Shown one piece after another: positions 523 to 44,814 of a stretch of DNA of 64,000 bases (position 1 is the stretch's first letter; each line of letters begins with the position of its first letter). The stretch is from an uncultured Verrucomicrobiota bacterium (GTDB taxonomy: Bacteria > Verrucomicrobiota > Kiritimatiellia > CAIQIC01 > Lenti-01), in contig CAZYGH010000002.1 of assembly GCA_964647595.1 (NCBI GenBank), positions 3,599 through 67,598 on the forward strand, in the 5' to 3' direction. Made by a program: the position numbers and the translations under genes. A model generated the notes under the pieces. It saw only the letters and a list, made by a program, of their open reading frames with translations, searched no databases and had not been told where the DNA came from.

Positions 523-640
523 TTTGTTCCCGTCCACCAAGGAACACATTCTGGCGGATTTTTTTCTTTTTTTGCACCACCTCCTGTTTTAATTTATTCC
601 CATGGGCAAAAATAACGACGCCCTTCATAAAGGATATCCC

Positions 641-1340: not shown

Positions 1341-1649
1341 ATGGTCAAACACATCGTCGCATGGCGGCTCAAAGAGTCCGCTCACGGAAACGACAAAGCC
1401 ACCAACGCCCGCCTCATCCGCGAAAAACTCGAAGCCCTGCGCGGCCAAATCCCCGGCCTCCTTCACATCGAAGTCGGGGTCGATTTCTCCGCCACCGAAA
1501 CCAGCGCCGACCTCGTCCTCCTCACCGAGTTCGAATCCCGCGCCGACCTCGCCACCTATTATCCCCACCCCGCCCACCAAGCCGTCGCCGCCTTCGTCCG
1601 CGAAGCCGTCTGCGAACGCCGCCTCATCGACTACGAAATCACCCCCTAG
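1341..1649 (+). CDS. Dabb-family stress-responsive alpha/beta-barrel protein
   Basis: 102 aa. MVKHIVAWRLKE...LLHIEVGVDF...HPAHQAV pattern characteristic of the Dabb domain. Confidence 0.7.
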   Translation: MVKHIVAWRLKESAHGNDKATNARLIREKLEALRGQIPGLLHIEVGVDFSATETSADLVLLTEFESRADLATYYPHPAHQAVAAFVREAVCERRLIDYEITP

Positions 1650-2533: not shown

Positions 2534-3580
2534 CTACATAAATCGTTCCATGTCCGCCTGTACCATCTCCAAGGCGGGAAGCGAACGGCATCTCTGGACT
2601 TGAATACCCAGCTCCCCGCAGATGGGGGACAGAATCATTTGAAGCCACGCGTTGTTCACCAACAGGGTGGAAGGCTTAATCTTATGGTTCATCAGAGCTT
2701 TCACGACCCGTCCAGGCAACTGTTCCCACATGGCTTGGAGGGTGGTTTCCACGGTCATCATGTCGAACCCAAAAGAAAAGGCCGATTCGGATTCCACGAG
2801 AATCAGAAAATATGGAAACCGAGGGCGTTCACCCGGGTTTCCGATGAGGTGGGGAATCAGGGAAACACCCAATTCGACGCACATATCCGTTACAGGGATG
2901 AACCGCATGGCATCAACAATCGACTGGGGAATGGTAATCCGCAAGTGCTGCGGTTCTTGGGGATATTCCCGCACCTCTTCCCTCCAGACCGTATGACCAT
3001 CCTGGACTTCCTGAATCCGGACCCAAAATCGACCCTTGGAGCCGATTTCCGGAAGAATGGACGGATCCTTTTTGAAGCGCGGGGCGAATTCCAGCAGTTG
3101 CTCCATGGCAAGCAAGAGGGGGGAGACTTCGCTAGGTTCAATATACCACGGCGCATATCCCGCCCGAAAACTTTTGTACTGCGGCCATGCCGCTCGACCC
3201 CGGGGGGAAATCCCAAGCGATTTGACGACTTTTTTTTCTTCGGGGCACAAATCGGTTGCCGAACCGAAAATAGCTTGGAGATGGGGTGTTTCCAAAACCT
3301 CATCCATCCGCTTATTGTCGGTATTTTTTTGGAGGTGCAAAATTTGGTGCATGGCCAAAGGAGATTCATAGAGCGCCATGGAATGATAATCCCCGAGTGC
3401 GCCCATGACGCTGATGAAAGACGGAAGCTCAGCTCCGATCGGCTGAATGCCAAAGACATCGGATTCTTCCATCCACGTCCACGGCTTCATTTCTGCGATG
3501 CGCAGGGAGGCCTCCATCAAGGTTTTCCATTGTTCCATGGAGATGGCAGAGAGCGGATGGTTGTGTTTTTTTCGTGGCAT
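2534..3580 (-). CDS. Conserved hypothetical protein (348 aa)
   Basis: Balanced, non-repetitive composition. The opposite-strand Arg/Pro-rich 526-aa ORF is a typical high-GC artefact. Confidence 0.55.
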   Translation of the reverse strand: MPRKKHNHPLSAISMEQWKTLMEASLRIAEMKPWTWMEESDVFGIQPIGAELPSFISVMGALGDYHSMALYESPLAMHQILHLQKNTDNKRMDEVLETPHLQAIFGSATDLCPEEKKVVKSLGISPRGRAAWPQYKSFRAGYAPWYIEPSEVSPLLLAMEQLLEFAPRFKKDPSILPEIGSKGRFWVRIQEVQDGHTVWREEVREYPQEPQHLRITIPQSIVDAMRFIPVTDMCVELGVSLIPHLIGNPGERPRFPYFLILVESESAFSFGFDMMTVETTLQAMWEQLPGRVVKALMNHKIKPSTLLVNNAWLQMILSPICGELGIQVQRCRSLPALEMVQADMERFM

Positions 3581-3894: not shown

Positions 3895-4632
3895 ATGAGC
3901 GATAGTATCCTGTCTATGAAGCCGAACCTCGAGATTCTGGAAAATCGCAAAACCCTCGCACTCGCCTTGGCCACGCGCCTCTCGACTCTCGCCAACGAAT
4001 CTCTCACCGCTCACGGTACTTTCCGCCTCGTCCTTCCCGGCGGCTCGGTTGTCTCCCTCCTCGCACAAGGGCTGGCACACCACCCCGTTGATGCCTCTCG
4101 TTGGGAACTCTTTTGGACCGATGAACGCTGCGTGCCACTCACCCATCCCGACAGCAATTTTCTTCTCGCCCAAACCCACCTCTTCCCCGTGTTGCAAATT
4201 TCTCCCTCCCGCATTCACCCCATCCAAGGCCATCTCGGTCCCGAAGCCGCCGCCCTTGCCTATGAAGCCGAACTAGCAAATGCGTTGACTCCATTCGATC
4301 TGATTCTGCTGGGCGTGGGCGAGGACGGACACATCGCTTCGCTGTTTCCCGAAAATCTCGCGCTTCTCGAAACCTCCCGTACCGTGGTTCCCGTGCGCCA
4401 CGCACCCAAGCCCCCACCCGAACGCGTGACTCTCACCCTGCCCACCCTCCTCCACGCCCGCCACGTTTGGGTCGTGGCGGCCGGCGAAGGAAAACAATCC
4501 ATTCTGCAACACGTGTTTTCTCCCGTCTCCAGCGCATCTTCCTTGCCCGCTCAACTCCTGCAGGCCTCCCACGGAACCGTCACGTGGATGATCGATCGCG
4601 CCGCCGCCCCCACCGCAAAGGATCCCTCATGA
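3895..4632 (+). CDS. pgl: 6-phosphogluconolactonase
   Basis: FRLVLPGGS...[12 protein letters not shown]...[17 protein letters not shown] motifs. Stop overlaps the zwf start (ATGA). Start could alternatively be at 3916. Confidence 0.8.
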
Positions 4633-6077
4633 GCCACACCCCTCCCAAAGCCGACAGCACTACCATCGTCATTTTTGGAGCCTCGGGCGACCTCACCCAC
4701 CGCAAGCTCATTCCCGCCCTCTATCGCAATCTCAAAAAAGGACGCCTGAAAGATCAAACCCGCATCGTGGGCGTCGCCCGCCGCGACTGGAGCAACGACG
4801 TTTTCCGCGAGCGTCTCCTCGACGGCGTTAAACGGTTCGGCGGCACGTTCGATGATGCCGCATGGGCCGATTTCTCCCAGCGCATCCATTATGTGCGCGG
4901 CGATCTGGAAGTGGCCGCCGACTATGCCCATGTCGATGCCCGCCTGCGCGAAATCGAAGCCGGTCCCGCCAATCGGTTGTATTACTTGGCCACCGCTCCT
5001 GAATTTTATGGCCCCGCCTGCGATCACCTCGCCGCTGCCGGAATGAACACCGAAACCGAAGGCTGGCGCCGCGTCATCATCGAAAAACCGTTTGGCCACG
5101 ATCTCGCCTCTGCCGTCGCGCTGAATGAGCGCGTGCATGACTCTTTCCGAGAACATCAGGTCTACCGCATCGACCACTATCTGGGAAAAGAAACTGCTCA
5201 AAACATCATGTTTTTGCGTTTCGCCAATACGTTGTTCGAGCCCGTGTGGAATCGCCGCTATGTCTCCAATGTTCAAATCACCGTGGCCGAAGATGTCGAT
5301 GTCGGCAGTCGCGGCGGCTACTACGACACCGCCGGCGTCCTGCGCGATATGTTCCAAAACCATTTGCTTCAACTGCTCTCGCTCGTCGCCATGGAACCCC
5401 CCGCCTCCCTCGATGCCAATGCCGTCCGCAACGAGAAAGCCAAAGTGCTCGGCAACATCCGCCTCATTCGGCTCACCGATACCGTCCGCGCCCAATATGA
5501 AGGCTATCGCTCTTCCGAACGCGTCGGCCCCGATTCGCAAACGCCCACCTTCGCCGCTCTCAAACTGTACATCGACAACTGGCGCTGGAAGGGCGTCCCG
5601 TTTTATCTGCGCTCCGGCAAAGCCATGCCCTCGCGCACCAGCACCATCATTGTGGAATTCCAAGCCCCCCCCGACATCATGTTCGGCCTCGCCCGCAAAA
5701 AAGCGTTCACCCCCAACATGCTCACTATCTGCATCCAGCCCGAGGAAGGAGTCCATCTGCGCTTCGAAACCAAAGTGCCCGACACCATCGCCGATTCCAA
5801 ATCCGCCAAAATGGATTTCAGCTATCGCGAAGCGTTCCCCGATGTCGTCCTGCCCGATGCCTACGAACGCCTCCTCCTCGATGCGCTCAAAGGCGATGCC
5901 TCCCTGTTTGCCCGTAACGATGCCATCGAATTGGCCTGGCGCTTGATCGACCCCATCCTGTTCGGATGGAACAAAGCTCCCGAAATTTCTCCCCTGCGCA
6001 CCTACGCTAAAGGCTCGTGGGGCCCCGAACAATCCAACGAACTCGTAGCCCGCGATGATCATGTCTGGCGGCTATGA
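4629..6077 (+). CDS. zwf: Glucose-6-phosphate 1-dehydrogenase
   Basis: [24 protein letters not shown]-binding motif, RIDHYLGKE active-site motif, full-length ~480 aa. Confidence 0.9.
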
Positions 6078-6102
6078 CGAACCCCAACGAAGGAAAACCA
6101 AA

Positions 6103-7560
6103 ATGAAAACAAAAGCAGATATCGGTGTCGTCGGCTTGGCCGTCATGGGCGAAAACCTCATTCTTAACATGGAAAGCAAAGGCTTCACCGTCGCCTGCTT
6201 CAATCGCACCACCGCCAAAGTGGACGCCTTCATCCACGGCCGCGGCAAAGACAAAAATCTGATCGGTTGCCACTCCCCCGCCGAGCTTGTCGTCGCTCTC
6301 GAACGTCCGCGCAAAGTCATGATGATGGTCCGCGCCGGCCGCGCCGTCGATGAACTCATCCACGAACTCATTCCCCTGCTGGAACCCGGCGATATCTTGA
6401 TCGATGGCGGCAACAGCTATTATCCCGACACCATCCGCCGTTGCGCCGACATCGAAAAGCATGGCCTTCTCTATGTCGGCACCGGCGTCTCCGGCGGCGA
6501 AGAAGGCGCCCTCAAAGGCCCTTCCATCATGCCCGGCGGAAATGCCAACGCGTGGCCCGCCCTTCGCCCCATCTTCCAAGCCATCGCCGCCAAAGTGGAC
6601 GATGGCTCCCCCTGCTGCGAATGGCTCGGCCCCGACGGTGCCGGCCACTTCGTGAAAATGGTCCACAACGGAATTGAATACGGCGACATGCAACTCATTG
6701 GCGAAGCCTATCACCTCATGTCCCAAGGTCTCGGCATGTCGCCCGCCGAAATGTCCGATGTCTTCCGCCGCTGGAACCATGGCGTGCTGGATTCGTATCT
6801 CATCGAAATCACCGCCGACATTCTCGCCAAGACCGACGACGAAACCGGCAAGCCCCTCGTCGATGTCATCCTCGATGCCGCCGGACAAAAAGGCACCGGC
6901 AAATGGACCTCACAAGCCGGACTCGATCTCGGCGTCGGCATTCCCCAAATCGCCGAAGCCGTCTTTGCCCGTTGCCTGTCCGCCATCAAAGAAGAACGAG
7001 TCGCCGCCGCTCCCCACCTCGTTGGCCCCAATCAACAATTCTCTGGCGACAAAACGGCTTTCCTCGCCGACCTCGAACAAGCCGTCTACGCCGCCAAAAT
7101 TTGCTCCTACGCCCAAGGCTATCAACTTCTCCGCGCCGCATCCGAGGAACACGACTGGAAGTTGAACTACGGCAACATCGCCCTCCTCTGGCGCGGCGGC
7201 TGCATCATCCGCGCGCAATTCCTCGGGAAAATCAAAGAAGCATTTGATGCCAACCCCGCCCTCGCCAATCTCCTCCTCGCGCCATACTTCAAAGACGTCA
7301 TCGCCCACGCACAATCCTCCTGGCGACGCGTCATCAAAACCGCCATCGATCTCGGCATCCCCCTCCCCGCCATCTCCACTGCACTGAGCTACTACGACGC
7401 CTACCGTTGTGAACGCCTCCCCGCCAACCTGCTCCAAGCCCAACGCGATTACTTCGGCGCCCACACCTACGAACGCACCGACAAACCCCGCAACGAATTC
7501 TTCCACACCAACTGGACCGGCCAAGGCGGCACCACCGCCTCCACCAGCTACGGCGTCTAA
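6103..7560 (+). CDS. gnd: 6-phosphogluconate dehydrogenase, decarboxylating
   Basis: IGVVGLAVMGENLILN Rossmann motif, MVHNGIEYGDMQLI, full-length ~485 aa. aaggaaaa RBS. Confidence 0.9.
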   Translation: MKTKADIGVVGLAVMGENLILNMESKGFTVACFNRTTAKVDAFIHGRGKDKNLIGCHSPAELVVALERPRKVMMMVRAGRAVDELIHELIPLLEPGDILIDGGNSYYPDTIRRCADIEKHGLLYVGTGVSGGEEGALKGPSIMPGGNANAWPALRPIFQAIAAKVDDGSPCCEWLGPDGAGHFVKMVHNGIEYGDMQLIGEAYHLMSQGLGMSPAEMSDVFRRWNHGVLDSYLIEITADILAKTDDETGKPLVDVILDAAGQKGTGKWTSQAGLDLGVGIPQIAEAVFARCLSAIKEERVAAAPHLVGPNQQFSGDKTAFLADLEQAVYAAKICSYAQGYQLLRAASEEHDWKLNYGNIALLWRGGCIIRAQFLGKIKEAFDANPALANLLLAPYFKDVIAHAQSSWRRVIKTAIDLGIPLPAISTALSYYDAYRCERLPANLLQAQRDYFGAHTYERTDKPRNEFFHTNWTGQGGTTASTSYGV

Positions 7561-7605
7561 CCCCTCCTCCCCGCCCCGCCGGAGCCCATATCTTCCCAAA
7601 AGGTA

Positions 7606-8180: not shown

Positions 8181-9527
8181 TCAGGGTCGCTGTTCCCAAG
8201 TCCCAGCCGTCATGTTCCGGAACCAACGAGGGTTGGTGGCCCCATTGTACCACAGCCACGCGCTATCACTGGCGCGATACAGGAAAGGATACAGCGTGCT
8301 ACTCGTATACAGCCACCCCATGTCCTGCGCATAAAACCAAATGTTCTGCTGTGTGCTACTGGGCGCGGGATACCAGAACCCTTGTTTGTTATGCCAGATC
8401 CAGCCGTCACTGCCCATCGGCACGTAATCCCCAAACCACGTCAACCGGCGCCAGCTTGCATCAAGGAGTACAAGCCCGTAGTTCCAAGTGTTGTCCGAGA
8501 CCCCATTCCACAATACCGTCGGGCGAAGCTGCCATAAGTCGCCAATCGTGCCAAAGCCAGTGGCCCCAGCAAGGCGATATACCGTTACATTGTTAGAAAT
8601 GTAACTGTATTCGCTAGAATACGAAAACATGCTGTTATCACTCGTGGCCGGTGCATTGCCAAGGAAGTAAACTCGAGCCAAACTGATGCAATTTTGAAAC
8701 ACCATGGCATTCATAACGGTGACATTGGTGGGAATCGTCACGCTGGTCAGGCTATAGCAACTTATGAACATACCCCATTGGATATAGGTAAGACTGGAGG
8801 GGATTGTCACGGCGGTCAAATTGTGGCTTTCCGCAAACGACATGCTCGGACTAGAGGTGACTCCATCCGGAATCGAATAGCTTCCGGACCGAGCTTCTGG
8901 ATATTGGATAAGCTCGGATTTGTTTTTGTTGAACAGAACCCCCTCCGCACTACTGCTAAAGGCCGGATTGTTCGAATCCACGGTGATCGCAAGAATGTCC
9001 GGGCTGAATCCAAATGCCCGGCCTCCGATGATTGTTACGCCAGCGTGGATTGTCACGCCGGTGAGTCCGTTGCACCTTCCAAACGCACCACCCGCGATGG
9101 TAGTGACATTGGAGGGAATCGTATAGCTTCCGGCCCGCAAACCGGGATAGCGGATAAGCGTGGTGGGAGGGTTGTTGAACAGAATGCCATCCTCACTGCT
9201 AAAGGCCGGATTGTTCGAATCTACGGTGAAGGCCGTAATGGCACAGCCGCGGAACGGTTCGTCCCCAATGTTGGTGACGCTGGCGGGAATGGACACGCTG
9301 GACAACCCCGCGTACGAGAACACCCCTTCATCAATGGCAGTGACAGGATATACGCCCAGTGTGTCGGGGATATCGAGTACGACGTTCTCGTTTGTGGAGT
9401 CGTAGACCGTGATAGTGGCATTCCCATTCGTGACTGTATAGGTGTAGGGACCTTCTTGTTGCGCCGTTGCGGCAAGCGGACTTGAGATCGAGGCGGATAG
9501 AGCTAGTAATGCGAGCAGACGTTTCAT
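8181..9527 (-). CDS. Secreted BspA-type leucine-rich-repeat surface protein
   Basis: Signal peptide MKRLLALLALSASISSPLAATAQ. Repeated ~23-aa units (IP.SVT.IG..AF..C..LTSVTIP), the Treponema/Bacteroides BspA-like LRR pattern. Lies in a lower-GC segment. Confidence 0.75.
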   Translation of the reverse strand: MKRLLALLALSASISSPLAATAQQEGPYTYTVTNGNATITVYDSTNENVVLDIPDTLGVYPVTAIDEGVFSYAGLSSVSIPASVTNIGDEPFRGCAITAFTVDSNNPAFSSEDGILFNNPPTTLIRYPGLRAGSYTIPSNVTTIAGGAFGRCNGLTGVTIHAGVTIIGGRAFGFSPDILAITVDSNNPAFSSSAEGVLFNKNKSELIQYPEARSGSYSIPDGVTSSPSMSFAESHNLTAVTIPSSLTYIQWGMFISCYSLTSVTIPTNVTVMNAMVFQNCISLARVYFLGNAPATSDNSMFSYSSEYSYISNNVTVYRLAGATGFGTIGDLWQLRPTVLWNGVSDNTWNYGLVLLDASWRRLTWFGDYVPMGSDGWIWHNKQGFWYPAPSSTQQNIWFYAQDMGWLYTSSTLYPFLYRASDSAWLWYNGATNPRWFRNMTAGTWEQRP

Positions 9528-10443
9528 GGCTTCTCCTTCGTGGGTTATTCAGACGCTTCAACGAAGGTCATAATGTGCTATTAGCTGAGTAACGCAACCT
9601 TTCCTTTTACCCATTACCCCAATCATTAGCGCTGGCCATCCCACAACCCATCGCCGTCCCGCCAAGGGGTCAGTCCTTGCATTGTAGCATTCTATGAAAG
9701 GGTCCGTTTCATATACTGATATTTTCCATCCCTCCCACAGTTTCGGATTTCCAATATCCTTTCGGATCGAAACCGGTTGAGGAGGAGTACAACCGGACGT
9801 CAAAACTCCTCCGCGTCTCCGCGACTTTGCGAAAAAATCGGCTGTTCCTCTTCCATCTTTAACCCCATCCCCGATCTATTCTCCCGCAGAGGCGCAGCGA
9901 ATCTATGAGGGAGTCAAATCCTCGCATCAGGGTTGGGACATATCTATGAAATGTCTTCTCGATTTTACCGGACGGTTCATCGCGCCGTCCCTACCCGCCC
10001 CAATCCGTACAAGAACCCTCCCCTTTCATATTTTTCTTGGCACGTTTTCTACGCTGCCATAGTCATAAGTTTCTCCGTGACAATGGCGGAAATCAAACAA
10101 CCGTTGTCTCTCGCCAAGGACGCAAAGAGGGGCATGCCCATGCAACACCCCCCGTTCTGTTGCGCCTGTTTAAATGACCCTTTTCTAGTCCGTGGAAGTT
10201 TCGGATTTTTCCCGGTTGCCTTCGTACGCGGCTTGGCCGCAAAGCAGTCAGGCACCTCTCCGCGCCTCTGCGCGAAAACATGGTTGCCCGGATCGGCGTT
10301 TGCGTTCCTTTTGCGCCCATTGCGCCTCTTGCGTTAAATGGATCGAAAGATTGGGTTGCGGCTCTGCCGCGCTGTGTCCATCCGTGGTTCTTACAACTCA
10401 GCGTTTGCGAGAAGTTGAGGCAAGACGTTGCGATACTTTATCC

Positions 10444-13400
10444 TTATGGGATTGTTGAATCTCGTCGCAACACCACCTCGCAAAGAGGAATTCCCCAGCG
10501 TTTCGCCGCACACGTCTTGCGCCATTCGGGTTCGGCATCTTCCTTCCGCCAACCATAAATGCCCAACACGCGAATCTCGTCCACCCGGTCGGCGGATTGG
10601 ATAAATCGGCGAGTCCCGTCCCTCGATAACAGTGCCAAGACCGTCCCATCCGCTTTCAGCGCAATTCCCGACCGTGTCTCCTCCCAGCCCAACCGATCCC
10701 CCACACGAACCTGACTCATCCCATTGGCAATCCGCTCTACACGATCCACGTCTCCCCGCCCCGCAAAGGACAAATCAAAATCGGCGGGTCCCAACACTCG
10801 ATACCTCTTCAAGGGCAACAGCCCAACGGGCGCAGTCCCCTTTTCCCGAACCACCGCTTCGGCCCCTCTCAATGGCTCCAGAATGGGACAGCGATCCCCG
10901 CTCCAATCCACCACCGCCAACGCACGCTTGGCACGCGTCATGCCCACATACAACAAGCGATGCGCCTCTTCCGAATCCTTGCGCCACAGATTCTGCCAAC
11001 GCCCCGCAACCGCCACACACCCATGCTCCGTGCCCTTGGCGGCGTGAAGAGTCGAAAGCCAAACGCCATCATTTCCCAATCGGCCATCCCGACGAAACCC
11101 GGCACAACTTTCATAAAAATGCTCGATCCACTCTTCTGCAACCGCCTCCCCCTCTGGAAAATCATCCACCATTCCCGCTAGCAAATCCGGCCACCGTCCA
11201 TCGCCACACGCATGGCGAATACGGCTCATCGCTTCTTCCATCATTCCGCGCGAGACCCGTTGCCCGGCCTGAGCCTGAAGTTTTTCCAACAGCATCATGC
11301 ACTCGCGCAACCGCCACAAAGCAGGCAACCCCGTTCCCCGTTGTCCCTCCATCGGCGAAATCCGCACATTCAACGGAATGCGCTCGGCCTCCGCCACCGA
11401 CCGGAACGCATCCAAATCTTCATGGTTCACCCCCAGCACCGCCATATCCTTCCAATCCACTCCCGCCTTACGCCAATTCTTCACCTGCTCCATAAGTCCC
11501 AGTGCCTGCGACTCCAAGCCATCCACCTCCAGCAACCGAACCGGCTCACCAACCGGCTCCTTGCTTCGCCGCCGATCCACATGAATCGGCATTTCGGCTT
11601 TCATCCGACCTCGATTTTCCTCAATCACTCGCCCCGCCGCATCCAAAATGGCCTTGCTCGACCGATAGTTCGACGTCAGGCCGCACATCTCCGCCTCATA
11701 GTCTTTTTCAAAGCGCCGAATGAAGCGTACATCGGCTCCACGAAACCCATAAATACTCTGGTCATCGTCGCCCACCGCCAAAAGGCCAAGCTTGGCATCC
11801 GGATCTTTCAACGTGCGGCCCGCCAACGCCGAAATCAGCTCATATTGCACCTCATCCACATCCTGATATTCATCCACCAAGATAAAACGAAAGCCCGCCA
11901 ACAACCGATCGCGCGCTTCATCCCGCTCACCGGGCTCCATCGCCAAATCTCCCCTCAAAAGACGTATTGCATCTCGAAGCGGCTGCTCAAAATCTAGTTC
12001 ACCCGACACCTTCACTCCCGCCCCCGAACGCCCGGCCATGGCGGAATAGGATGTCCCCGTGAGCCGCATCGCCAACCCGTGATACGTCATCACCGTCACC
12101 CCTCGCGCCGCATCCCCCGCCAACGCACGCAAACGGCGACGCAACTGAACCGCCGCCTCGTGATTGAAACACAGCCCCAAAATGGACTGCGCGGGCACAT
12201 GCTGTATTTTCAACAACCACGCCATCCGGTGCACCACCGTCTGAGTCTTGCCCGAGCCAGGCCCCGCCAACACCAGCCAATTCTGCTCGGGATTGGCCTC
12301 CACTACCCGCCGCTGCTCTTCGTCGCCCAGCTCTTCCACCACCTTCCGATAAGCCTCCGCCGTGGCCGCCCGCTCCAGTTCCTTCTTGCGCCCCGGAAAA
12401 TAGCGCTCACTAAACTGCCGTTTCTCGAGTCGAAAGTAATCGAGCACCAACGACAACGCCGCGGGCATGTTCTGCAATCCGCGCAGGGCATACTCCATCA
12501 TCACGTGAACTTGAAACGTCTTCTCCTCGTAGTACAACCCCAACGGGGCATACTCCTTCACGCCATACCCTCGAGAGGGCTCCGCCTCCACTCGAATCGT
12601 CATAGCCGTACGGAATAGCGCCAATCCACGCTGCAACCGGATGACCTGCAAATCGTGCAACCACAACAGCGCGCGTTCAGCAGCCACAGAGGCATTCGTT
12701 GGACCCGTCTGCAACAGCGATCCCGATTCAATCGCCTCACATAATTGATCCATCGTGAATTCCGCCAGTACATCTTTGCTCCCCGGCGTCTCGTGCGGAA
12801 TCTGCGCCAAGATCGTCTCTAACACGCGCGCCGCCTCGTCCCGACGCCGAGCCGCCAGCTCCACCACCATCGGCATCTCCACATTCAATCGAACACGGTG
12901 ACGCGTGGCGCTTCCCGGACGAATCTCCACCAGCCTCTTCCCCCCTTCCTCCAAACCCGACAACGATTGTGCCATTCTTTCGAAATCCTGCAAACTCGTC
13001 CCGCTTTCGCCTTCGTCTTTCAGCCGCTGATTCAACACGGTCGTATCCAGCACCAGCTCCTCCCCCGCCGAAGCCCCCTGCTCAATCAACAACTCATGAA
13101 ACCGTTTTTCAGCACGTGACAATCGCTCCAGACGCAAATGCGAGGGATCTGAAACCTTATGCCGCACATAAGCCGACATCGCCGTGCATTCCTTCAGCAC
13201 CTTTGCCTTCGACATCGCACGCAACTCACCAAACAACAGCCCATGCAGGCGAGCGGGTTCCCGTGGCCACTCTTGCTTCCGGTTCCACCCCTCCAGCGAG
13301 GGCAACGTCAGCAACCGATCCGCATCAATTCCCGCATCCGCTCGGGCAAACACAAATTCATTCAGAATGTCGCCCCACAATTTCTGACGCTCCGGCGGCT

Positions 13401-15606
13401 CCCCCAATTCAAACGCCCGAGCTTCCGCCTCATTCCGAGTCCGCGCAACAGGACGCGCCTGAAACACACTCACCACATTATCGTCGCGCTTCAAATAGTG
13501 TGCGCGCTCCAACCACGAAATCGCCGTTTTCACTTTGGTGTTTAGCCCGCGATCCTCCGGATCCAACACCTCTTGCAACCGCGTATCCTGCATCAACTCG
13601 CCCACCGTCACCACCAGCGAATCCCCATCTTTTCGCTTATGCTTTCTCAGCGCTCGCAGAATCTCCGCAATCTCGCGCCGCCCCAGCCGATTCATCCCAT
13701 TGAGATTGAATTGCCAATCCGCATCGTTGTCATCGAACAACAAAACACAGTCCGCCGCTCGACGGTCTCGCCCCGCTCGCCCCGCCTCCTGAAGATAATT
13801 CTCAACCGATCCCGGCATGTCACCGTGAATCACCACCCGCACATCTTCTTTGTCTACGCCCATGCCAAATGCATTCGTCGCCGCGATGACCTGCAAATCG
13901 CCCGCGATGAATCGATCCTGCACTTCTTTTTTTTCTTCCGGCGGAAGCCCCGCATGATAGTGAGCCGCTTTCCATCCGGCCTGTTGCAGACACTCCGATG
14001 TCTCCCGGGCCTTGGCCCGCGTGGATCGAAAGACAATCGCCCCGCCCCTTCCATACTCGCCCATGCGCTCCGACAGAATCTCGGATATTTTCTGCAACCG
14101 CTCAAAACCCGCTGCCACCTTCACCACCTCAAACTTCAGGCCCGGACGTTCCACCGAGGATTCAAACAGCGGCAACTCCCGCGAGCCCGTCATCGCTTCA
14201 TGAAAAGAACGAATTTCGTCCAGTACCTCGCTCTTGGCCGTGGCCGTCACATACATCACCGGCGGCACCGGCGTCCCCATTCGTTCGCGAATGAACCGCT
14301 CGGCATACAGATAATCCGTGCGAAAATCATGCCCCCATTTCGAGAGGCAATGGGCCTCATCAAACACCCACGCCCCAATCTCACGCTGCGAAATCGCCTT
14401 GGCAAACGATCGGCTCCTCAACTGCTCCGGTGCAATGTAGAGCAACGAAACATCCCCCATCGCAATTCGATGCAACACATCGCGCCGTTCCAACGGCGAC
14501 AGCAACCCATTCAGCGCCGCCGCACACCCCAGCGCCGCCGGCACACGCTTGGCCAACTGATCCACCTGATCTTTCATCAAGGATTGCAACGGCGAAAGAA
14601 TGATCGTCAGCATCCCCCGCCGCTCCATCCGAGCCAACGCTGGAAGCTGGAAGCACAACGATTTTCCACCCCCCGTCGGCAAAATCGCCATCAACGATTT
14701 CCCCGCCAACGCCGTCTCCACAATTTCCCGCTGCAAGCTACGCCCATTTTCATCCACGCGGAAATCCGAAAACTCCGGAAACCAGCGATGCAAACGCTCG
14801 CGCGCATCAAATTGCGTTCGGCACCAAACACACTTCGAATCTCCGCAAGGCACATCCCGCAACTGAGCTGCCAGCTCCCGGCTTTTCGGAAATTGTTTCC
14901 ACACCCAGCCCGGCAATACAGATCGGCAATCGCCCGCCACCGAAAGCCACGCCAGCACATACGCCAGCGCCATCCGCTCTTCCCTCAACAACGGAATCTC
15001 GAACCGTTTCGCCGCCGTCCCACATCCATTCCGACCCGCACATTCACGGATGGCATCAACAACGCTTTCTTCCGAAGGCAACGATCCGCCAAATACCAGC
15101 GCATAGCCCCTCTCCAAGCGCCCCTCTCCCGTGGCGCAAAGCCCGTGGATCGCGCGATGAAACTTCGGATCTCGCTCCCGCCATTCGCTCAACACCTCTC
15201 GCTCCCGACGAAACAACTGGCGCGCCAAAACCGCATCGCCCAACGGATCGTTTTCCTCGCGCCCCGTCGGCTTGTAGTCTTTCTCCAACGCGTGATACGG
15301 ATTTCGCGGAAAACACAACGGTGATAACTCCAACGTATCCACCACCGGCAGTTTTTCCAACAGAGCCAAATTCGGAAATTGCTTCGCCAACACCGGCAGA
15401 TCATGCCGCCAAATGTTGTGTCCCGATATCGCCACCGCGCCAAACAGCGCATCATCCAAGCGGCCTTGCAATAGAGGCTTGGGCTGCGACTCCCCCCACA
15501 ACCACGCCATGCCCCCATTCAGCGACTCGATGCAAAGTCCCGCCTTGGAAATACAATCCCCCTTCAGATTGGTTTCCAAATCCAGGAACAGCATCCGCTC
15601 GATCAT
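10444..15606 (-). CDS. Tri-domain nuclease/helicase (1720 aa): N-terminal DEDDh (DnaQ-like) 3'-5' exonuclease, RecQ-family SF2 helicase, C-terminal UvrD/PcrA-family SF1 helicase
   Basis: Exonuclease motifs FLDLETN, GHNIWRHDLPVL, VVDTLEL, YHALEKD (aa 1-175). RecQ motifs ILPTGGGKSLCFQLPAL, VFDEAHCLSKWGHDFR, YHAGL, ATNAFGMGVDKEDVRVVIH, QEAGRAGRD (aa ~285-640). UvrD motifs LAGPGSGKT, LVDEYQDV, VGDDDQSIYGFRGA, NYRS, TLHAAKGTE, VGMTRAKRAL (aa ~1085-1700). Single uninterrupted frame. Confidence 0.85.
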   Translation of the reverse strand: MIERMLFLDLETNLKGDCISKAGLCIESLNGGMAWLWGESQPKPLLQGRLDDALFGAVAISGHNIWRHDLPVLAKQFPNLALLEKLPVVDTLELSPLCFPRNPYHALEKDYKPTGREENDPLGDAVLARQLFRREREVLSEWRERDPKFHRAIHGLCATGEGRLERGYALVFGGSLPSEESVVDAIRECAGRNGCGTAAKRFEIPLLREERMALAYVLAWLSVAGDCRSVLPGWVWKQFPKSRELAAQLRDVPCGDSKCVWCRTQFDARERLHRWFPEFSDFRVDENGRSLQREIVETALAGKSLMAILPTGGGKSLCFQLPALARMERRGMLTIILSPLQSLMKDQVDQLAKRVPAALGCAAALNGLLSPLERRDVLHRIAMGDVSLLYIAPEQLRSRSFAKAISQREIGAWVFDEAHCLSKWGHDFRTDYLYAERFIRERMGTPVPPVMYVTATAKSEVLDEIRSFHEAMTGSRELPLFESSVERPGLKFEVVKVAAGFERLQKISEILSERMGEYGRGGAIVFRSTRAKARETSECLQQAGWKAAHYHAGLPPEEKKEVQDRFIAGDLQVIAATNAFGMGVDKEDVRVVIHGDMPGSVENYLQEAGRAGRDRRAADCVLLFDDNDADWQFNLNGMNRLGRREIAEILRALRKHKRKDGDSLVVTVGELMQDTRLQEVLDPEDRGLNTKVKTAISWLERAHYLKRDDNVVSVFQARPVARTRNEAEARAFELGEPPERQKLWGDILNEFVFARADAGIDADRLLTLPSLEGWNRKQEWPREPARLHGLLFGELRAMSKAKVLKECTAMSAYVRHKVSDPSHLRLERLSRAEKRFHELLIEQGASAGEELVLDTTVLNQRLKDEGESGTSLQDFERMAQSLSGLEEGGKRLVEIRPGSATRHRVRLNVEMPMVVELAARRRDEAARVLETILAQIPHETPGSKDVLAEFTMDQLCEAIESGSLLQTGPTNASVAAERALLWLHDLQVIRLQRGLALFRTAMTIRVEAEPSRGYGVKEYAPLGLYYEEKTFQVHVMMEYALRGLQNMPAALSLVLDYFRLEKRQFSERYFPGRKKELERAATAEAYRKVVEELGDEEQRRVVEANPEQNWLVLAGPGSGKTQTVVHRMAWLLKIQHVPAQSILGLCFNHEAAVQLRRRLRALAGDAARGVTVMTYHGLAMRLTGTSYSAMAGRSGAGVKVSGELDFEQPLRDAIRLLRGDLAMEPGERDEARDRLLAGFRFILVDEYQDVDEVQYELISALAGRTLKDPDAKLGLLAVGDDDQSIYGFRGADVRFIRRFEKDYEAEMCGLTSNYRSSKAILDAAGRVIEENRGRMKAEMPIHVDRRRSKEPVGEPVRLLEVDGLESQALGLMEQVKNWRKAGVDWKDMAVLGVNHEDLDAFRSVAEAERIPLNVRISPMEGQRGTGLPALWRLRECMMLLEKLQAQAGQRVSRGMMEEAMSRIRHACGDGRWPDLLAGMVDDFPEGEAVAEEWIEHFYESCAGFRRDGRLGNDGVWLSTLHAAKGTEHGCVAVAGRWQNLWRKDSEEAHRLLYVGMTRAKRALAVVDWSGDRCPILEPLRGAEAVVREKGTAPVGLLPLKRYRVLGPADFDLSFAGRGDVDRVERIANGMSQVRVGDRLGWEETRSGIALKADGTVLALLSRDGTRRFIQSADRVDEIRVLGIYGWRKEDAEPEWRKTCAAKRWGIPLCEVVLRRDSTIP

Positions 15607-18981: not shown

Positions 18982-21900
18982 GTGAACTTATTGCCGGGCG
19001 TTGGATGTGGACTGGCCTTTCTGGTGTATTTCGCAACCGGAATCGTGGCCCAGCCCATCGATTTCTTCTATGTCGGCCACGACGTGGTGGACTACGCTCT
19101 CAACGTGTATGCCGACCCCGCAGGCGGGCCTGCGTACCAGATCGATTGCTGCCCCGATTGCCCCACCAACACCTGGACCAAAGTGGAGATCTACCGCGAC
19201 GACGTGCTCCTCACCGCCTTGCCCGAAGCCAAATTGACCTCCCGGCAGATCCGCCACAACCTCTCGGACGCTACGGTCCTGCCCGATCAGCTCCACGCCT
19301 ACCGGCGGCGAGACTACATCCGCAATCCCTGCACCGGCGGCCAGTGGGTGGAAACCAACCCTTCCACCCTTTCGCAGACCGTCGATACCTCGCGCTGCTC
19401 CGGCGCTCTGTACAACGACGGCACCTTTCCCCGCGACCCCATCCACTGGAGCGGCAACGTGCAGGTCCGCGACGTGCGCGTGGAAATGGGCGTTTTGGAA
19501 GTCCAGCCCGGTTCCGTCGTCACCATCGAGAACGTCCTTTATACCGCCATCTACAATCCGGGGGCGCCGTCCGATGGCAGCCTGCAGGCCATCGCCGCAA
19601 CCTTCCGGGGCGGCAACACCAACGGATTGCCCAGCTTGATGATCCTCGATACCGAAGCCTCCGCTCGCCCGGCCCTCAGCCAATGCACGCTGAACGACGT
19701 CCATCTCTGCGTAAGGAACAATGCCCGCAACGTCGAGTTGATCGACAACGTCTTCACCGGAAATTCCAAGCTGGAAATCAGCGGGCGCAACGGCGTCTGC
19801 AGCGGCACCCGCGGCATCGACCTTCTCGGATTTGGCGGCGCGGACTACCTCGTAGCCAGCAATGTGGCCAACTCCATCGAGGTGGGTTCCTCGAACTGCG
19901 TCGTGCGGGACAACGTCTGCGAGGACTTGATCGTATACTCCGGTGGAAACCAAATCGTGGGCAACCGCGCCATTTCGCTGTCCGTACACGGAAAAGGAAA
20001 TCTCATCCACGGCAACCAGATCGACAGCACCGACAAGCCCAACTACGCAGGCATGAGTATTCGCGGCAGCCACCACGACGTTCGCTCCAACCTCTTTCGC
20101 TCATCGGGCATGAGCCTCGGCGGCGCCAGCAACGTGGTGTCCGGAAACCGCTTCGAAGGGTTCATCCAGCCCGTCGTATGGACCAACCATTCGCTCTTCG
20201 TCAACGGCCGCGGCCATCTCATCTACAACAACTACTTCGGCGGCTGGGGACACAGCGTCGGCGGCTGGGACTACCAAGGCTCCAATCGCTGGTCCATCGA
20301 TAAATCGCCCGGCCCCAATATCGTCGGCGGCCCCTTTCTCGGCGGCAACTACTGGGCGCGCCAAACCGCCGCCGATGCCAACGGCGACGGACTGGGCGAT
20401 ACCCCGCATGTCGTGCCCGGCCAAGCCGGCGCCCAAGACCTGTTGCCCCTCATTGGCCCCGGCGAGCTGGAACTCCACGCCGGCACAGCCAATCCCAATG
20501 GCTCCACCTTCAACCCCGCCGGACAACCCTTCCCCGTCGCCCAAATCTTGCTGCGCGCAGGCGACACCCTCTCCGACGACGCCGTTGTCAATTCCATGAC
20601 CTTCACCTTCCAAGGCGACACCCAGCGCCTCGCGTCCGTCCGCAGCGCCCAGTTGTACTCCGGCACCTCCCACTTCTTGCTGGACTTGACCCTTCTCGCC
20701 GAAGCGCCGTTCTCCGGCAACCGCGTCACATTCGTCCTCAACGAACGCCTTCCTCCGGGTTCCCAGCGCCACTACACCGTCTTCTACGTGTTCCACTACG
20801 TCGACGAATACGCCGCGCCCCCGCCCGCCGCCGCCGCCTCCAAAATCCGCTTCGGTGCCTCCATCCAACCGGAAGACGTGTCCACGCCGTCCGTACTCGT
20901 GACCGGCAGCGCAAAGCCGGGCTGGGTTCGTCCGCTCCACCTTCGCTATCTCACCGCCTTCATGCCGGGTGCCCCCGCCTCCGTGGGCTCGGCCATCGAA
21001 TCCTCCGCCGAAGTGCTCTTCGCCTGGTCGCTCTACGGCGACGTCTGCGCCAACCCCAATCTCCGCATCCTGCGCGACGTGGGTTCCGCCGAACAGCCCT
21101 GGACCCTGTGGATCAAGGACCGCGACGCCGTCCACGCCCTGTCCTCCTTCGCCAACCGGCCCACGTTCCGCACCTTCGATTGCGCAGGCGCCTCCACCGA
21201 AAACCTCGCCTTGCCCACCGTCGAAGCGCTGGATTCCTACGTCGACGACGATGGGCGGCTGTTCTGGGCGCCCGGCTTGGCCTTCGACGACCCGTATGCC
21301 AACGCCGATTTCCTCTTCGCGGGCGAAGTCGATCTAACCGTCGCCGCCACGCGCGGAGATTACGCCGGCTTCCTGCGCGACGTCGCCACCCCGCTGCGCA
21401 ACGCATTCGGCGGAGCCGACAACGTCCTCGTCTCCAGCTACTCGGCCGAAGGCGACGGCTACCTCGCCACCCTCCGCATCCTCACCCGCCAAAGCGCCTC
21501 GCGCGTCCGGGCCGCCCTCCTGCCGGGCGCCAGCGTCCTCGACATGCGCGGCCGCACCCTCTCTGTCCGCTACGCCCATTCCCACGGCAGCGACGCCATG
21601 CGCTCGCCCGGCGCGTTCCTCGAAGTGCAACCCCAACTCGACTTCGGCCACGTCACCGTCGACCAAACCGCTACGCGCCGCCTGCTCCTCCGCGAACGCA
21701 ACGGACAAGAGCCCCTGCACGTTTCCGCCATCCTCGCCTCCGGCCCCTTCCGCTCCGACTGGAGCGGAACCATCCCCGCCGGTGGCCAAACCAACGTCCC
21801 CGTGTCCTTTTCTCCCCTCTCCCCCGACGCCCAGATCGGATTTCTCCGCGTCGTTTCCGACGCCGCCTCCGGACCCTGCGAAACGCTCTGCTCCGGACAA

Positions 21901-22269
21901 GGCACCGCGCTGGAAATCGACGAAGCCTACCGCGACGTCCACGGACTCCCCCTCGATGGCTCCGGCGACTACGAAGACTCCGACGACGATGGGTTCAGCA
22001 ACTGGGAAGAATGGCTCTGCGGCACCGACCCCAACGACCCCGCCTCCCATCTGCTCGTCTCCCCCTCATCTGAAGGCAGTCTCCTGACCTGGCCCAGCCA
22101 AGCCGGACGCCGCTACAACGTCTATCGATCAACAGACCTGACCCGCGCCGTTCCCTTCCTCTTCTTGGAATCCATCGTCGGCCAAGCCGGAGAATCATCC
22201 TTCGAAGATAGCGACCCCATGCCCGCCCCCCTGCGCATCTATCGCGTGGAAATCCAGCCAGACGAGTAA
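18982..22269 (+). CDS. Large secreted right-handed parallel beta-helix repeat protein (1095 aa) with C-terminal TSP3-like calcium-binding motif
   Basis: N-terminal signal/TM. Many NxxG/beta-helix repeats (NVxxxNxxxxNG...). DSDDDGFSNWEEWLCGTDPNDPAS motif near C-terminus. The antisense ORFs in this span are high-GC artefacts. Confidence 0.7.
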   Translation: MNLLPGVGCGLAFLVYFATGIVAQPIDFFYVGHDVVDYALNVYADPAGGPAYQIDCCPDCPTNTWTKVEIYRDDVLLTALPEAKLTSRQIRHNLSDATVLPDQLHAYRRRDYIRNPCTGGQWVETNPSTLSQTVDTSRCSGALYNDGTFPRDPIHWSGNVQVRDVRVEMGVLEVQPGSVVTIENVLYTAIYNPGAPSDGSLQAIAATFRGGNTNGLPSLMILDTEASARPALSQCTLNDVHLCVRNNARNVELIDNVFTGNSKLEISGRNGVCSGTRGIDLLGFGGADYLVASNVANSIEVGSSNCVVRDNVCEDLIVYSGGNQIVGNRAISLSVHGKGNLIHGNQIDSTDKPNYAGMSIRGSHHDVRSNLFRSSGMSLGGASNVVSGNRFEGFIQPVVWTNHSLFVNGRGHLIYNNYFGGWGHSVGGWDYQGSNRWSIDKSPGPNIVGGPFLGGNYWARQTAADANGDGLGDTPHVVPGQAGAQDLLPLIGPGELELHAGTANPNGSTFNPAGQPFPVAQILLRAGDTLSDDAVVNSMTFTFQGDTQRLASVRSAQLYSGTSHFLLDLTLLAEAPFSGNRVTFVLNERLPPGSQRHYTVFYVFHYVDEYAAPPPAAAASKIRFGASIQPEDVSTPSVLVTGSAKPGWVRPLHLRYLTAFMPGAPASVGSAIESSAEVLFAWSLYGDVCANPNLRILRDVGSAEQPWTLWIKDRDAVHALSSFANRPTFRTFDCAGASTENLALPTVEALDSYVDDDGRLFWAPGLAFDDPYANADFLFAGEVDLTVAATRGDYAGFLRDVATPLRNAFGGADNVLVSSYSAEGDGYLATLRILTRQSASRVRAALLPGASVLDMRGRTLSVRYAHSHGSDAMRSPGAFLEVQPQLDFGHVTVDQTATRRLLLRERNGQEPLHVSAILASGPFRSDWSGTIPAGGQTNVPVSFSPLSPDAQIGFLRVVSDAASGPCETLCSGQGTALEIDEAYRDVHGLPLDGSGDYEDSDDDGFSNWEEWLCGTDPNDPASHLLVSPSSEGSLLTWPSQAGRRYNVYRSTDLTRAVPFLFLESIVGQAGESSFEDSDPMPAPLRIYRVEIQPDE

Positions 22270-22544: not shown

Positions 22545-22697
22545 ACAATTTTCAATCCCTCCAAAATGTCTGCCGTTTCTACGCTACTCGACCCTCTTCG
22601 TACAAGCAAAAACGGGTCCTCTTAAACGAGTTTGATTTCTACGGCCCCATTTTCGGATATTGCGGTGTCTCGGGTTTGGGTGTATCAAACGCCGCAC

Positions 22698-24083
22698 ATG
22701 TCTTTCCCATATTCATCCGATACCATTGCCGCCATCGCCACCGCCCCCGGAGAAGGAGCCATTGCGATTGTCCGTGTTTCCGGCCCCGAAACCTATGCCT
22801 TGGCCGATCTCTTGTTTCGCGTCTCCCCTCCCCTCCCCTCGTCCCGAGTAGCCGGTACGTTTGCGCATGGCTCCGTTGTGCACCCGTCCACGGGTGAGGT
22901 ATTGGATGAGGCCATCTGTCTCTTCTTTCGCACTCCCCATTCCTATACCGGCGAAGATTCGATCGAAATTCAATGCCATGGCGGATCCCAAGTCGCCCGG
23001 CGCATTCTTCATGCTCTGATTTCTGCAGGCGCACGCCAAGCCGAACCGGGAGAATTCACCAAACGCGCTTTTCTGAATGATAAACTGAATCTGACTCAAG
23101 CAGAGGCCGTCCTGGATCTAATCCATGCCCGATCCGAACGGGCCGCACGCCTGGCCACCGCTCAACTCGAAGACGCCCTCGGCCTGCGCGTTCGAACCCT
23201 TTACGATACACTCCTTTCGACTTCTGCGGATCTTGAGGCCATGCTTGATTTTCCAGATGATGAACTGCCGCAATCGGTTCCGACTGAATTGATTCAACGC
23301 CTTTCCACACTGGCCACCCAAATCAACGCCTTGTTAGATACGTGGAAGGAAGGGAGAGTCCTCCGTGAGGGCGCACGCATGGTGATTGCAGGAGCCCCCA
23401 ACGTCGGAAAATCCACCTTACTCAATCGCCTCGCCGGTCGCGACCGAGCGATTGTATCCCCACTCCCCGGCACCACACGAGATACCATTGAAGAAACGGT
23501 AACCTTGAGGGGCTATTCCATGCAAGTAATCGATACCGCGGGCTTGCGAAAAGCCCCTTGTGAAATTGAACAAGAAGGCATTCGTCGCACCTACCATGCC
23601 CTTTCCCAGGCCGATCTCTGCCTCAGCCTTGTTGATAGCTCCCGTCCGATCACAGACGATGAAGTCCAATTTATTTCAGCTCAGAACCCCAACAACACTC
23701 TCTTAATCCTAAATAAATCCGACCTAGGAACTCACCTTTCTGTCAAGGACTTCCCTGGCTTCACCTGTCTCTCCTATTCACTACAGAATGCCCCTTCTGT
23801 AGACCCCATCGTGGACCACATTCTCTCCCTCCTTCTCCAGAATCCGTCCGAAAGCGATCACGGCTTGTGGGCCATCTCCGAACGTCATCATTCTTCTCTT
23901 TCCATTGCATTAGAGGAGATTATGTTATCCATTTCCTGCCTTCAAAGCGGAAAGGAACAGGATTTTCTGCCCGCGGCAACCCATGCTCGAATAGCGCTTG
24001 AACACGTCGGAAATATTTTGGGGAGAAATTGCTCGGATGAGATAATCAATTCCATTTTTTCAAGGTTTTGTGTTGGAAAATAA
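22698..24083 (+). CDS. mnmE: tRNA modification GTPase MnmE
   Basis: N-terminal THF-binding domain, G-domain GAPNVGKSTLLN...PGTTRD, C-terminal C[IV]GK motif (FCVGK). Confidence 0.9.
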   Translation: MSFPYSSDTIAAIATAPGEGAIAIVRVSGPETYALADLLFRVSPPLPSSRVAGTFAHGSVVHPSTGEVLDEAICLFFRTPHSYTGEDSIEIQCHGGSQVARRILHALISAGARQAEPGEFTKRAFLNDKLNLTQAEAVLDLIHARSERAARLATAQLEDALGLRVRTLYDTLLSTSADLEAMLDFPDDELPQSVPTELIQRLSTLATQINALLDTWKEGRVLREGARMVIAGAPNVGKSTLLNRLAGRDRAIVSPLPGTTRDTIEETVTLRGYSMQVIDTAGLRKAPCEIEQEGIRRTYHALSQADLCLSLVDSSRPITDDEVQFISAQNPNNTLLILNKSDLGTHLSVKDFPGFTCLSYSLQNAPSVDPIVDHILSLLLQNPSESDHGLWAISERHHSSLSIALEEIMLSISCLQSGKEQDFLPAATHARIALEHVGNILGRNCSDEIINSIFSRFCVGK

Positions 24084-34023: not shown

Positions 34024-34065
34024 TAGGTGGGCCTTCGTTCCTTTTTTTAATGATAGTTCAATCTC

Positions 34066-36395: not shown

Positions 36396-36432
36396 AAATG
36401 CCAGTTAGAAAAACAGATAAGGTTCGCCAGTT

Positions 36433-42789: not shown

Positions 42790-42802
42790 GTGAAAGAGTA
42801 TT

Positions 42803-44810: not shown

Positions 44811-44814
44811 AACA

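Follow-up and report, generated by a model that had tools for sequence, protein, structure and literature searches.

The 64,000-nucleotide stretch of contig CAZYGH010000002.1 analyzed here (referred to as the window), from an uncultured Verrucomicrobiota bacterium of the class Kiritimatiellia, carries one very long open reading frame (ORF), and the question raised by this locus is what kind of enzyme it encodes and on which DNA that enzyme would act. Fusions of a helicase with a nuclease, among them WRN, DinG, RecBCD/AddAB, Cas3, and Nhi, play central parts in repair and immunity. The analysis confirmed that positions 10444 to 15606 form a single intact ORF with a complete RecQ-family superfamily 2 (SF2) core and a complete UvrD-type superfamily 1A (SF1A) helicase. 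The order of domains in the one chain was shown to be a DnaQ-fold DEDD domain, a helical domain with four cysteines, the RecQ-type SF2 core, four winged-helix domains, the UvrD-type SF1A helicase, and a family-specific C-terminal domain. In the literature searched, whose coverage is incomplete so that a prior description is possible, we found no account of this architecture, in which a RecQ motor of SF2, a UvrD motor of SF1A, and an exonuclease of the DnaQ fold are covalently linked. This protein family is uncharacterized, and nobody appears to have studied it.

The translation of the gene contains no internal stops, and the longest competing ORF in the other frames over the same interval is 583 amino acids. 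A search of 5.8 billion proteins retrieved the identical 1720-residue protein from four independent sources, together with more than 100 full-length homologs of 1710 to 1803 residues (42 to 85% identity, 95 to 100% coverage), and the N termini of these homologs align with residue 1. This alignment indicates that the ATG start is correct, and the identical protein and the full-length homologs with the same N terminus indicate that frame and start are real and not a sequencing artifact. The first-pass annotation of this DNA, made from the sequence alone, had described three modules in one uninterrupted frame at the same coordinates without stating the strand, which is the minus strand. The module matches described below and the absence of internal stops bear this out, and the stop or frameshift between recQ and uvrD that it had considered was not encountered, the translation being continuous and the protein identical in independent sources. 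Where the sources give the homologs a name, it is only “RecQ family ATP-dependent DNA helicase.”

Table 1. Coordinates of the fusion gene, of its domains and motifs, and of the genes that mark the origin region of the window.
Feature	Residues	Window position	Strand	Basis or remark
Exonuclease-RecQ-UvrD fusion gene	1720 aa	10444..15606	minus	ATG start (ORF listing)
DnaQ-like DEDD exonuclease-fold domain	1-140	15187..15606	minus	
ExoI motif, LDLET	8-12			
ExoII motif, GHNIWRHDL	62-70			
ExoIII motif, NDPLGDA	119-125			
Helical domain with four invariant Cys	141-285	14752..15186	minus	leads into RecQ motif 0
RecQ-family SF2 core, motifs 0, I-VI	286-636	13699..14751	minus	Pfam DEAD + Helicase_C, TIGR00614, motifs
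RecQ motif PTGGGKS	310-316			
RecQ motif DEAH	416-419			
RecQ motif SKWGHDFR	422-429			
RecQ motif TATA	454-457			
RecQ motif QEAGRAGRD	606-614			
Winged-helix array	637-1093	12328..13698	minus	structural model
UvrD/PcrA/Rep-type SF1A helicase, motifs I-VI	1094-1566	10909..12327	minus	Pfam UvrD-helicase, AAA_19, UvrD_C, UvrD_C_2
UvrD motif AGPGSGKT	1114-1121			
UvrD motif DEYQD	1245-1249			
UvrD motif VGDDDQSIYGFRGA	1278-1291			
UvrD motif NYRS	1313-1316			
UvrD motif LHAAKGTE	1520-1527			
UvrD motif YVGMTRAK	1553-1560			
Family-specific C-terminal domain	1567-1720	10447..10908	minus	stop codon 10444-10446
mnmE		22632-24083	plus	origin region
mnmG/gidA		24154-26067	plus	origin region
dnaA		31279-32661	plus	origin region

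The two motors were identified by profile matches and by their motifs (Table 1). In the RecQ part, the Pfam models DEAD (residues 290 to 462) and Helicase_C (516 to 614) matched above their curated cutoffs, and the NCBIfam model recQ_fam (TIGR00614) scored 286.2 bits against a cutoff of 219.8 over residues 287 to 644, which places the core in the RecQ family. In the UvrD part, AAA_19/UvrD-helicase (1098 to 1303) and UvrD_C/UvrD_C_2 (1513 to 1566) likewise exceeded their curated cutoffs, with 146.7 bits for PF00580 (cutoff, 23) and 64.6 bits for PF13361 (cutoff, 25.6), as expected of a UvrD-family member. Judged from the profiles, the protein belongs to the RecQ and UvrD-like families at the domain level only. 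Indeed, the canonical bacterial RecQ equivalog TIGR01389 reached 325.7 of the 640.2 bits required and aligned only at model positions 14 to 336 of 591, and the NCBIfam equivalogs for uvrD (183 versus 1144), pcrA (176 versus 911), and rep (140 versus 951) gave partial matches far below their cutoffs. The Pfam scan of the 1720-residue protein reported no RecQ Zn-binding (PF16124), RQC (PF09382), or HRDC (PF00570) domain; despite the missing RQC match, a winged helix follows the RecQ core in the structural model.

Nearly all residues of the RecQ and UvrD motifs are at least 90% conserved, both in 117 close homologs and in a diverse alignment of 71 family members that are 36 to 56% identical to the 1720-residue protein. 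The 2B-like insert of the UvrD module (approximately residues 1330 to 1510) is poorly conserved. Since all catalytic motifs are present and conserved across the family, both motors are predicted to be active. The complete sets of RecQ SF2 motifs and of UvrD motifs I to VI reported in the first-pass annotation were therefore all located. Among the Pfam families it had proposed for confirmation, DEAD/Helicase_C, PF00580, and PF13361 matched, and PF00929 and PF16124 did not.

The N-terminal domain has the DnaQ/RNase T fold. The four acidic residues that define the DEDD nucleases, D9 and E11 in ExoI, D69 in ExoII, and D124 in ExoIII, are present in 71 of 71 sequences of the diverse alignment, where H63, D90, and the NPYH motif at residues 102 to 105, with Y104 and H105, are also invariant. 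In DEDDh enzymes, the general base is a His that precedes the last Asp by five residues (H-x4-D). At the corresponding position 119, the 71 sequences have Asn (66), Ala (3), Gly (1), or Ser (1) and never His, and the domain does not qualify for the DEDDh class. The equivalence of position 119 to H162 of epsilon rests on the motif register (NDPLGDA here, HGALLDA in epsilon) and on a weak hhalign anchor that pairs GHN with IHNAAFD and PVVDTL..FP with KVTDSL..FP. This comparison of the N-terminal profile with DnaQ, which was non-significant (probability 2%) and used an approximate E. coli sequence, served solely as a check of the motif register. Pfam, including PF00929, gave no match in residues 1 to 276 even at E ≤ 10, and a 12-sequence N-terminal profile had no significant match among PDB sequences. 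Fold and metal ligands are those of a 3′-5′ exonuclease, and we designate the family “DEDD-N” and not DEDDh; the earlier assignment as a DEDDh exonuclease was right about the fold and wrong about the class. The missing general base could be supplied by Y104 or H105 of the NPYH motif.

The region between the exonuclease fold and the RecQ core (residues 141 to 285) is modeled as helices, mostly with a predicted local distance difference test score (pLDDT) above 85, and matches no known family. Its cysteines C195, C254, C259, and C262 (C-x58-C-x4-C-x2-C) occur in 71 of 71 sequences, a pattern that likely marks a putative Zn or Fe-S site. The linker of about 450 residues between the two motors, in which no motif had been recognized, is conserved among family members, and the structure prediction suggested for it resolves four winged-helix domains at about residues 643 to 719, 762 to 816, 850 to 907, and 943 to 1006, with long helices between them; a helical bundle at about residues 1016 to 1093 follows the array. 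The C-terminal domain has few conserved positions, such as W1704 (mean column identity, 46%); position 1705 is Glu in most homologs and Gly in the window protein. It has no Pfam match, no PDB match, and no conserved nuclease-type D/E/K motif, and when its profile was searched against the 5.8 billion proteins for other architectures, only fragments of the same family matched. Pfam searches at E ≤ 10 with the isolated N terminus, linker, and C terminus returned nothing usable, the sole match, to DUF4194 (E = 0.066), being dismissed. PDB sequence-profile searches with these three regions gave no significant match.

The architecture was compared with those of characterized enzymes. Firmicute DinG (S. 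aureus and B. subtilis) joins an N-terminal DEDD 3′-5′ exonuclease to an SF2 helicase-like domain, and the present family would work likewise, as an exonuclease with an SF2 motor. The motor of DinG is, however, XPD-like and not RecQ, its exonuclease carries the canonical DEDDh His where this family has Asn, and it lacks the second SF1 helicase, the winged-helix array, and the four-Cys module at that position, all of which are found here. WRN shares the order of 3′-5′ exonuclease fold, RecQ-family core, and winged helix, as well as the idea of a helicase that supplies a 3′ end to a covalently attached exonuclease. In contrast, WRN possesses Zn, RQC, and HRDC domains, none of which was detected in the window protein, and has no UvrD module. 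The WRN-type combination of a DEDDy, RNase D-type exonuclease with a RecQ core, RQC, and HRDC is thus not found in the window protein, and the WRN-like arrangement is most likely convergent. RecB, AddA, and AdnAB resemble the family in coupling a UvrD-like SF1A motor to a nuclease and in having two motor modules per machine, and NCBIfam gave partial matches to addA and recB. Their nuclease is a C-terminal PD-(D/E)xK domain and their motors lie on separate subunits, with opposite polarity in RecBCD, whereas here the nuclease fold is N-terminal and DnaQ-like, and SF2 and SF1A motors share one chain.

Likeness to defense and repair helicase-nucleases, which had been proposed from the sequence alone, was a reasonable lead. 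In PADLOC, the DpdF and PsyrT models score up to 337 bits on the RecQ core, and GajB models reach 177 bits on the UvrD part. No Nhi or Hna model appears among the best 25 PADLOC matches. The accessory, mobile genomic behavior described below also resembles that of defense helicases (GajB, DpdF, PsyrT/RqlH, Nhi, and Hna). The lead falls short of a known system, since only generic cores match and the partners of Gabija and Dpd are missing: no GajA, Dpd, or antitoxin (PsyrA) gene is present among the 10 annotated ORFs of the window. For Gabija, the GajB match is confined to residues ~1183 to 1414, and an ATPase/TOPRIM neighbor is neither present in the window nor conserved in 69 loci. For Dpd, the DpdF equivalog scored 178 against a cutoff of 550, and the neighbors are an ABC transporter, NudC, and a leucine-rich repeat (LRR) protein.

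The distribution of the family was explored with a pattern scan for the N-terminal module in one genome per GTDB species. The module was found in at least 593 species genomes from a dozen or more phyla; the matches listed include Beta-, Gamma-, and Alphaproteobacteria, Verrucomicrobiota, Kiritimatiellia, Chloroflexota/Dehalococcoidia, Binatia, Thermodesulfobacteriota, Spirochaetia, Vicinamibacteria, and Longimicrobiales. Cultured carriers include members of Aromatoleum, Azoarcus, Thauera, Cereibacter, Rhizobium, Allochromatium, and Pseudomonas (sp. S30). An exhaustive hidden Markov model search of 1.84 billion cluster representatives yielded 1083 representatives (50%-identity clusters) at E ≤ 1e-10, of which the complete matches are 1670 to 1911 residues long and most others look like fragments. 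In 57 of 80 fetched loci, the module heads a single ORF of ~1700 to 1920 residues that contains both DEAH and DEYQD; seven further loci are continuous until the contig ends, and the few split copies come mostly from long-read metagenome-assembled genomes. On these sequences, the module is essentially exclusive to the fusion of ~1700 to 1900 residues. The fusion is therefore not uncommon, as had been supposed, and it is not the widespread housekeeping ortholog with a known repair function that had been considered as an alternative: it is widespread, but accessory and of no known function. Counts of “RecQ” in genomes include these giant fusions and should be read with caution.

One of the split copies lies on plasmid pNPUN02 of Nostoc punctiforme (locus L087, 7791 to 12809), where the family gene is broken into three consecutive ORFs annotated as “RecQ family helicase,” “UvrD-helicase domain-containing protein,” and “3′-5′ exonuclease.” The last corresponds by position to the UvrD tail and C-terminal region and not to the N-terminal exonuclease fold, so that its name looks misleading. 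A “Rosetta-stone” reading of these ORFs as separate genes was rejected, since together they make up one broken copy, whose pieces adjoin one another in the original order.

The relationships among orthologs point to mobility. Nearest-neighbor orthologs cross phyla at 69 to 85% identity, as in the pairs Syntrophobacterales-Binatia (84%), Binatia-Thermodesulfobacteriota (85%), Alphaproteobacteria-Binatia (78%), Puniceicoccaceae-Azonexus (77%), Vicinamibacteria-Alphaproteobacteria (76%), and Spirochaetia-Pontiella (72%), and in several cross-phylum pairs both members sit on complete chromosomes or on contigs longer than 1 Mb. Orthologs from Azoarcus, Thauera, Aromatoleum, and Zoogloea are 80 to 91% identical and have essentially no flanking genes in common. 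Near-full-length copies are carried by 16 plasmids or chromids, one of them conjugative, from hosts that include Thiothrix, Cereibacter, Sulfitobacter, Microvirga, Paracoccus, Allochromatium (pALVIN01), Rhizobium, and Croceicoccus, with more distant copies on cyanobacterial plasmids; these replicons are mostly non-mobilizable megaplasmids or chromids. The family is an accessory gene of variable regions that has been transferred between phyla. A phage origin was rejected, no phage record covering at least 80% of the protein.

Clustering of all neighboring ORFs of the 80 fetched loci revealed no conserved partner gene, the commonest cluster occurring in 5 of 69 loci. When 149 neighbors from 25 loci were scanned with Pfam, they gave a mix of housekeeping and metabolic families and no recurrent defense family. 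This kind of scan looks for recurrence and is blind to diverse single occurrences, and defense families are too diverse to recur. PADLOC was used on 131 neighbors from 22 loci, a set from which split loci were left out, as their own helicase fragments matched there, and on 133 neighbors from 29 loci (51 loci in all). Strong matches comprised Type I restriction endonuclease and specificity subunits; Type II restriction endonuclease, Vsr, and methyltransferase; Type IIG enzymes (two loci); AbiLi, AbiU, AbiEii, Dazbog DzbA, PD-Lambda-4, and MADS components; and several PDC candidates. By our estimate, made without a matched background, a defense-type gene lies within three genes of the helicase at a quarter to a third of the loci.

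Individual loci illustrate these neighborhoods. On Allochromatium pALVIN01, the gene lies near hsdRMS (Type I restriction-modification), an HNH endonuclease, and an integrase; on the Thiothrix plasmid, near CRISPR I-D and a WYL protein; on Nostoc pNPUN02, near an N6-methylase with a helicase and a transposase; and on the Cereibacter plasmid, near two toxin-antitoxin pairs. In Azoarcus sp. Aa7, a C5 methylase and EcoRII are encoded directly upstream and a PLD-like gene downstream, and Azoarcus L1K30 has HipA as a neighbor. AbiEii stands directly downstream of a Kiritimatiellia homolog (68% identical), an AbiEii-like gene neighbors the A. toluvorans copy, and AIPR lies downstream in three Binatia loci. 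In these Binatia loci (L024, L048, and L081), a protein of 553 to 597 residues is encoded ~1 to 5 kb downstream of the helicase, and the member from L048, the only one scanned, is AIPR (abortive infection). In L040 and L048, the start of the helicase gene directly adjoins a DctM transporter gene, and the local synteny of Binatia reaches a Thermodesulfobacteriota chromosome (L074), which suggests that the block was transferred together. The PADLOC candidate PDC-S68, which is unvalidated, matches neighbors of the helicase in three loci, two of them from the set of 22 loci and one from the set of 29.

Taken together, the accessory nature of the gene, its transfer between phyla, its relocation among close relatives, its carriage on plasmids, its independence of any partner gene, and its frequent position beside restriction-modification, Abi, toxin-antitoxin, or CRISPR genes make an attack on foreign or aberrant DNA its most likely use. 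The reading that we favor, while giving it somewhat less than an even chance, is that of an uncharacterized, horizontally mobile, single-gene dual-motor helicase-exonuclease that attacks or processes invading or aberrant DNA as a stand-alone defense-type enzyme and is not part of core repair. The RecQ and UvrD motor families both track along single-stranded DNA in the 3′-to-5′ direction. The winged-helix array would hold duplex DNA or a branch point, and the two motors could pull apart a fork, gap, or bubble by engaging its two strands, or could both work in tandem along a single strand. The 3′ end set free in this way would pass to the N-terminal 3′-5′ exonuclease domain and be degraded; overall, DNA that offers accessible 3′ ends or branches would be unwound and resected at the expense of ATP.

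Several points weigh against this assignment. The association with defense genes concerns a minority of loci and was estimated with no matched background; most loci, including the window and its close relatives, have metabolic or housekeeping neighbors, and the PDC models of PADLOC are unvalidated candidates. The PADLOC matches of the protein itself cover only generic cores (residues 289 to 636 and ~1183 to 1414), and no model spans the whole protein. With Asn in place of the general-base His, the exonuclease may have little or no activity; as the predicted direction of both motors is 3′ to 5′, their mode of cooperation is speculative; and the C-terminal domain is unexplained. An experiment on any member of the family was not found in the literature searched.

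The same protein could serve in accessory genome maintenance, as a bacterial analog of WRN or of Firmicute DinG that acts on host DNA at stalled or reversed forks, D-loops, R-loops, and gaps and whose exonuclease would trim 3′ ends. This is a plausible explanation, to which we give less weight than to an attack on foreign DNA. RecQ and UvrD activities cooperate genetically in the control of recombination in E. coli, and the RecQ core scores above the threshold of its family. The window gene is chromosomal, lies in an ordinary setting at a distance of ~16 kb from dnaA, and points in the direction of replication; the gene is kept in many related Kiritimatiellia and Verrucomicrobiota genomes, and most loci lie amid housekeeping or metabolic genes. 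However, a patchy distribution, transfer between phyla, and the lack of synteny among near-identical orthologs are unusual for repair genes, and copies are carried on plasmids. Restriction-modification, Abi, and toxin-antitoxin genes recur as neighbors, and a perfect LexA box (CTGT-N8-ACAG) is absent upstream in 32 of 33 proteobacterial loci; with such a box in only 1 of the 33, general SOS control was rejected. It is this mobility, together with plasmid carriage, defense neighbors, and the lack of SOS boxes, that leads us to favor a defense-type role over genome maintenance.

A more far-reaching version of the defense-type role is less likely than not. The family would be a previously unrecognized, widespread single-gene system of immunity or DNA surveillance, in which the SF2 RecQ and SF1A UvrD motors are wired together through the winged-helix array and, with a non-canonical DEDD exonuclease (Y104 or H105 possibly acting as base) and a four-Cys metal or Fe-S sensor, destroy invading DNA such as phage or plasmid replication intermediates. 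If true, the family would provide the first nuclease with covalently joined SF1 and SF2 motors and a new coordination of two 3′-to-5′ motors. Characterization could reveal how branched DNA is handled jointly by two motors that run in the same direction, whether a DEDD site functions without a His or Tyr base, and whether the family is a new defense system or a mobile repair module. We regard the family as a good place to look for a new enzyme of DNA processing or defense.

We regard it as unlikely that the N-terminal domain is catalytically dead and does no more than sense or clamp 3′ ends, which would make the protein a pure dual helicase/translocase that, for example, removes protein or RecA roadblocks. 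The change of the general-base His to Asn in 66 of 71 sequences, with His in none, and the failure of Pfam exonuclease models to detect the domain would fit such a role. Invariance of the four metal-binding carboxylates and of H63, D90, Y104, and H105 at 36 to 56% identity is, in contrast, the pattern expected of a working active site, in which Y104 or H105 may have replaced the general base.

Less probable still is that the gene is cargo that serves mobile elements, such as plasmids or genomic islands, aiding their establishment, replication, or resistance to host nucleases and restriction, for instance by processing the DNA ends of the element or displacing host proteins. Carriage on 16 plasmids and megaplasmids (one conjugative), integrase or transposase genes near some loci, and the transfer between phyla agree with this idea. 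Relaxase, replication, and partition genes were nevertheless not seen as conserved neighbors, most of the plasmid hosts are non-mobilizable megaplasmids or chromids, no phage with the gene was found, and many copies are solitary and chromosomal amid core genes. Finally, a joining of separate recQ and uvrD genes by assembly or sequencing error, for which one could cite the few loci split into two or three ORFs, pNPUN02 included, is effectively refuted by the identical protein in independent sources, the more than 100 full-length homologs, the 57 of 80 loci from unrelated genomes that are continuous with both helicase motifs, the 7 that run on to the contig end, and the conservation of the inter-helicase linker itself.

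In the window, the helicase gene is the last of a co-directional cluster, preceded on the same strand by an amino acid ABC transporter (substrate-binding protein, permease, and ATPase) and by a NUDIX/Zn-ribbon (NudC-type) gene that lies 17 bp upstream. That the helicase gene terminates a long operon, as first annotated, is plausible; a scan for promoters and terminators found nothing above shuffled expectation. The adjacency to nudC is likewise real, but it is kept only in a 77%-identical relative and is missing from relatives at 68, 56, and 44% identity. The link is incidental and lineage specific, and nudC was rejected as a partner gene.

A gap of ~900 bp (9528 to 10443) separates the stop codon of the helicase gene from a gene on the minus strand for a BspA-type LRR_5 protein (8181 to 9527), and no annotated ORF, Rfam match, or tRNA was found in it. 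In the segment between 8 and 10 kb, the GC skew is no longer strongly negative as it is on either side. On the same side of the helicase gene, three ORFs on the minus strand (4551 to 6062, 6007 to 6888, and 6910 to 7599) contain no Pfam family, and another (2534 to 3580, minus) encodes a protein in which DUF7309 and DUF6930 occur together.

The origin region of chromosomal replication lies within the window. Over the interval from ~24 to 34 kb, GC skew turns from about −0.3 to about +0.2, its cumulative curve has a minimum close to 33 kb, and the predominant coding strand switches as well. Between the helicase gene and mnmE, an ORF of 1095 residues (18982 to 22269, plus strand) with NosD, ASH, and bacterial TSP3 repeats holds the GC maximum of the window (66.5% at 20 to 22 kb) and is probably a secreted or surface repeat protein. 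Beyond dnaA, the GC content falls to 46 to 49% at 34000 to 45000, compared with 53 to 58% in most of the remaining window. This low-GC block is a polysaccharide biosynthesis cluster, with a Polysacc_synt flippase, a pyruvyl transferase, and glycosyltransferases, and it may have been acquired horizontally. Further polysaccharide genes encode a Polysacc_synt_2 epimerase/dehydratase (46346 to 48373) and an unusually long protein of 1138 residues that contains Wzy_C (53138 to 56554).

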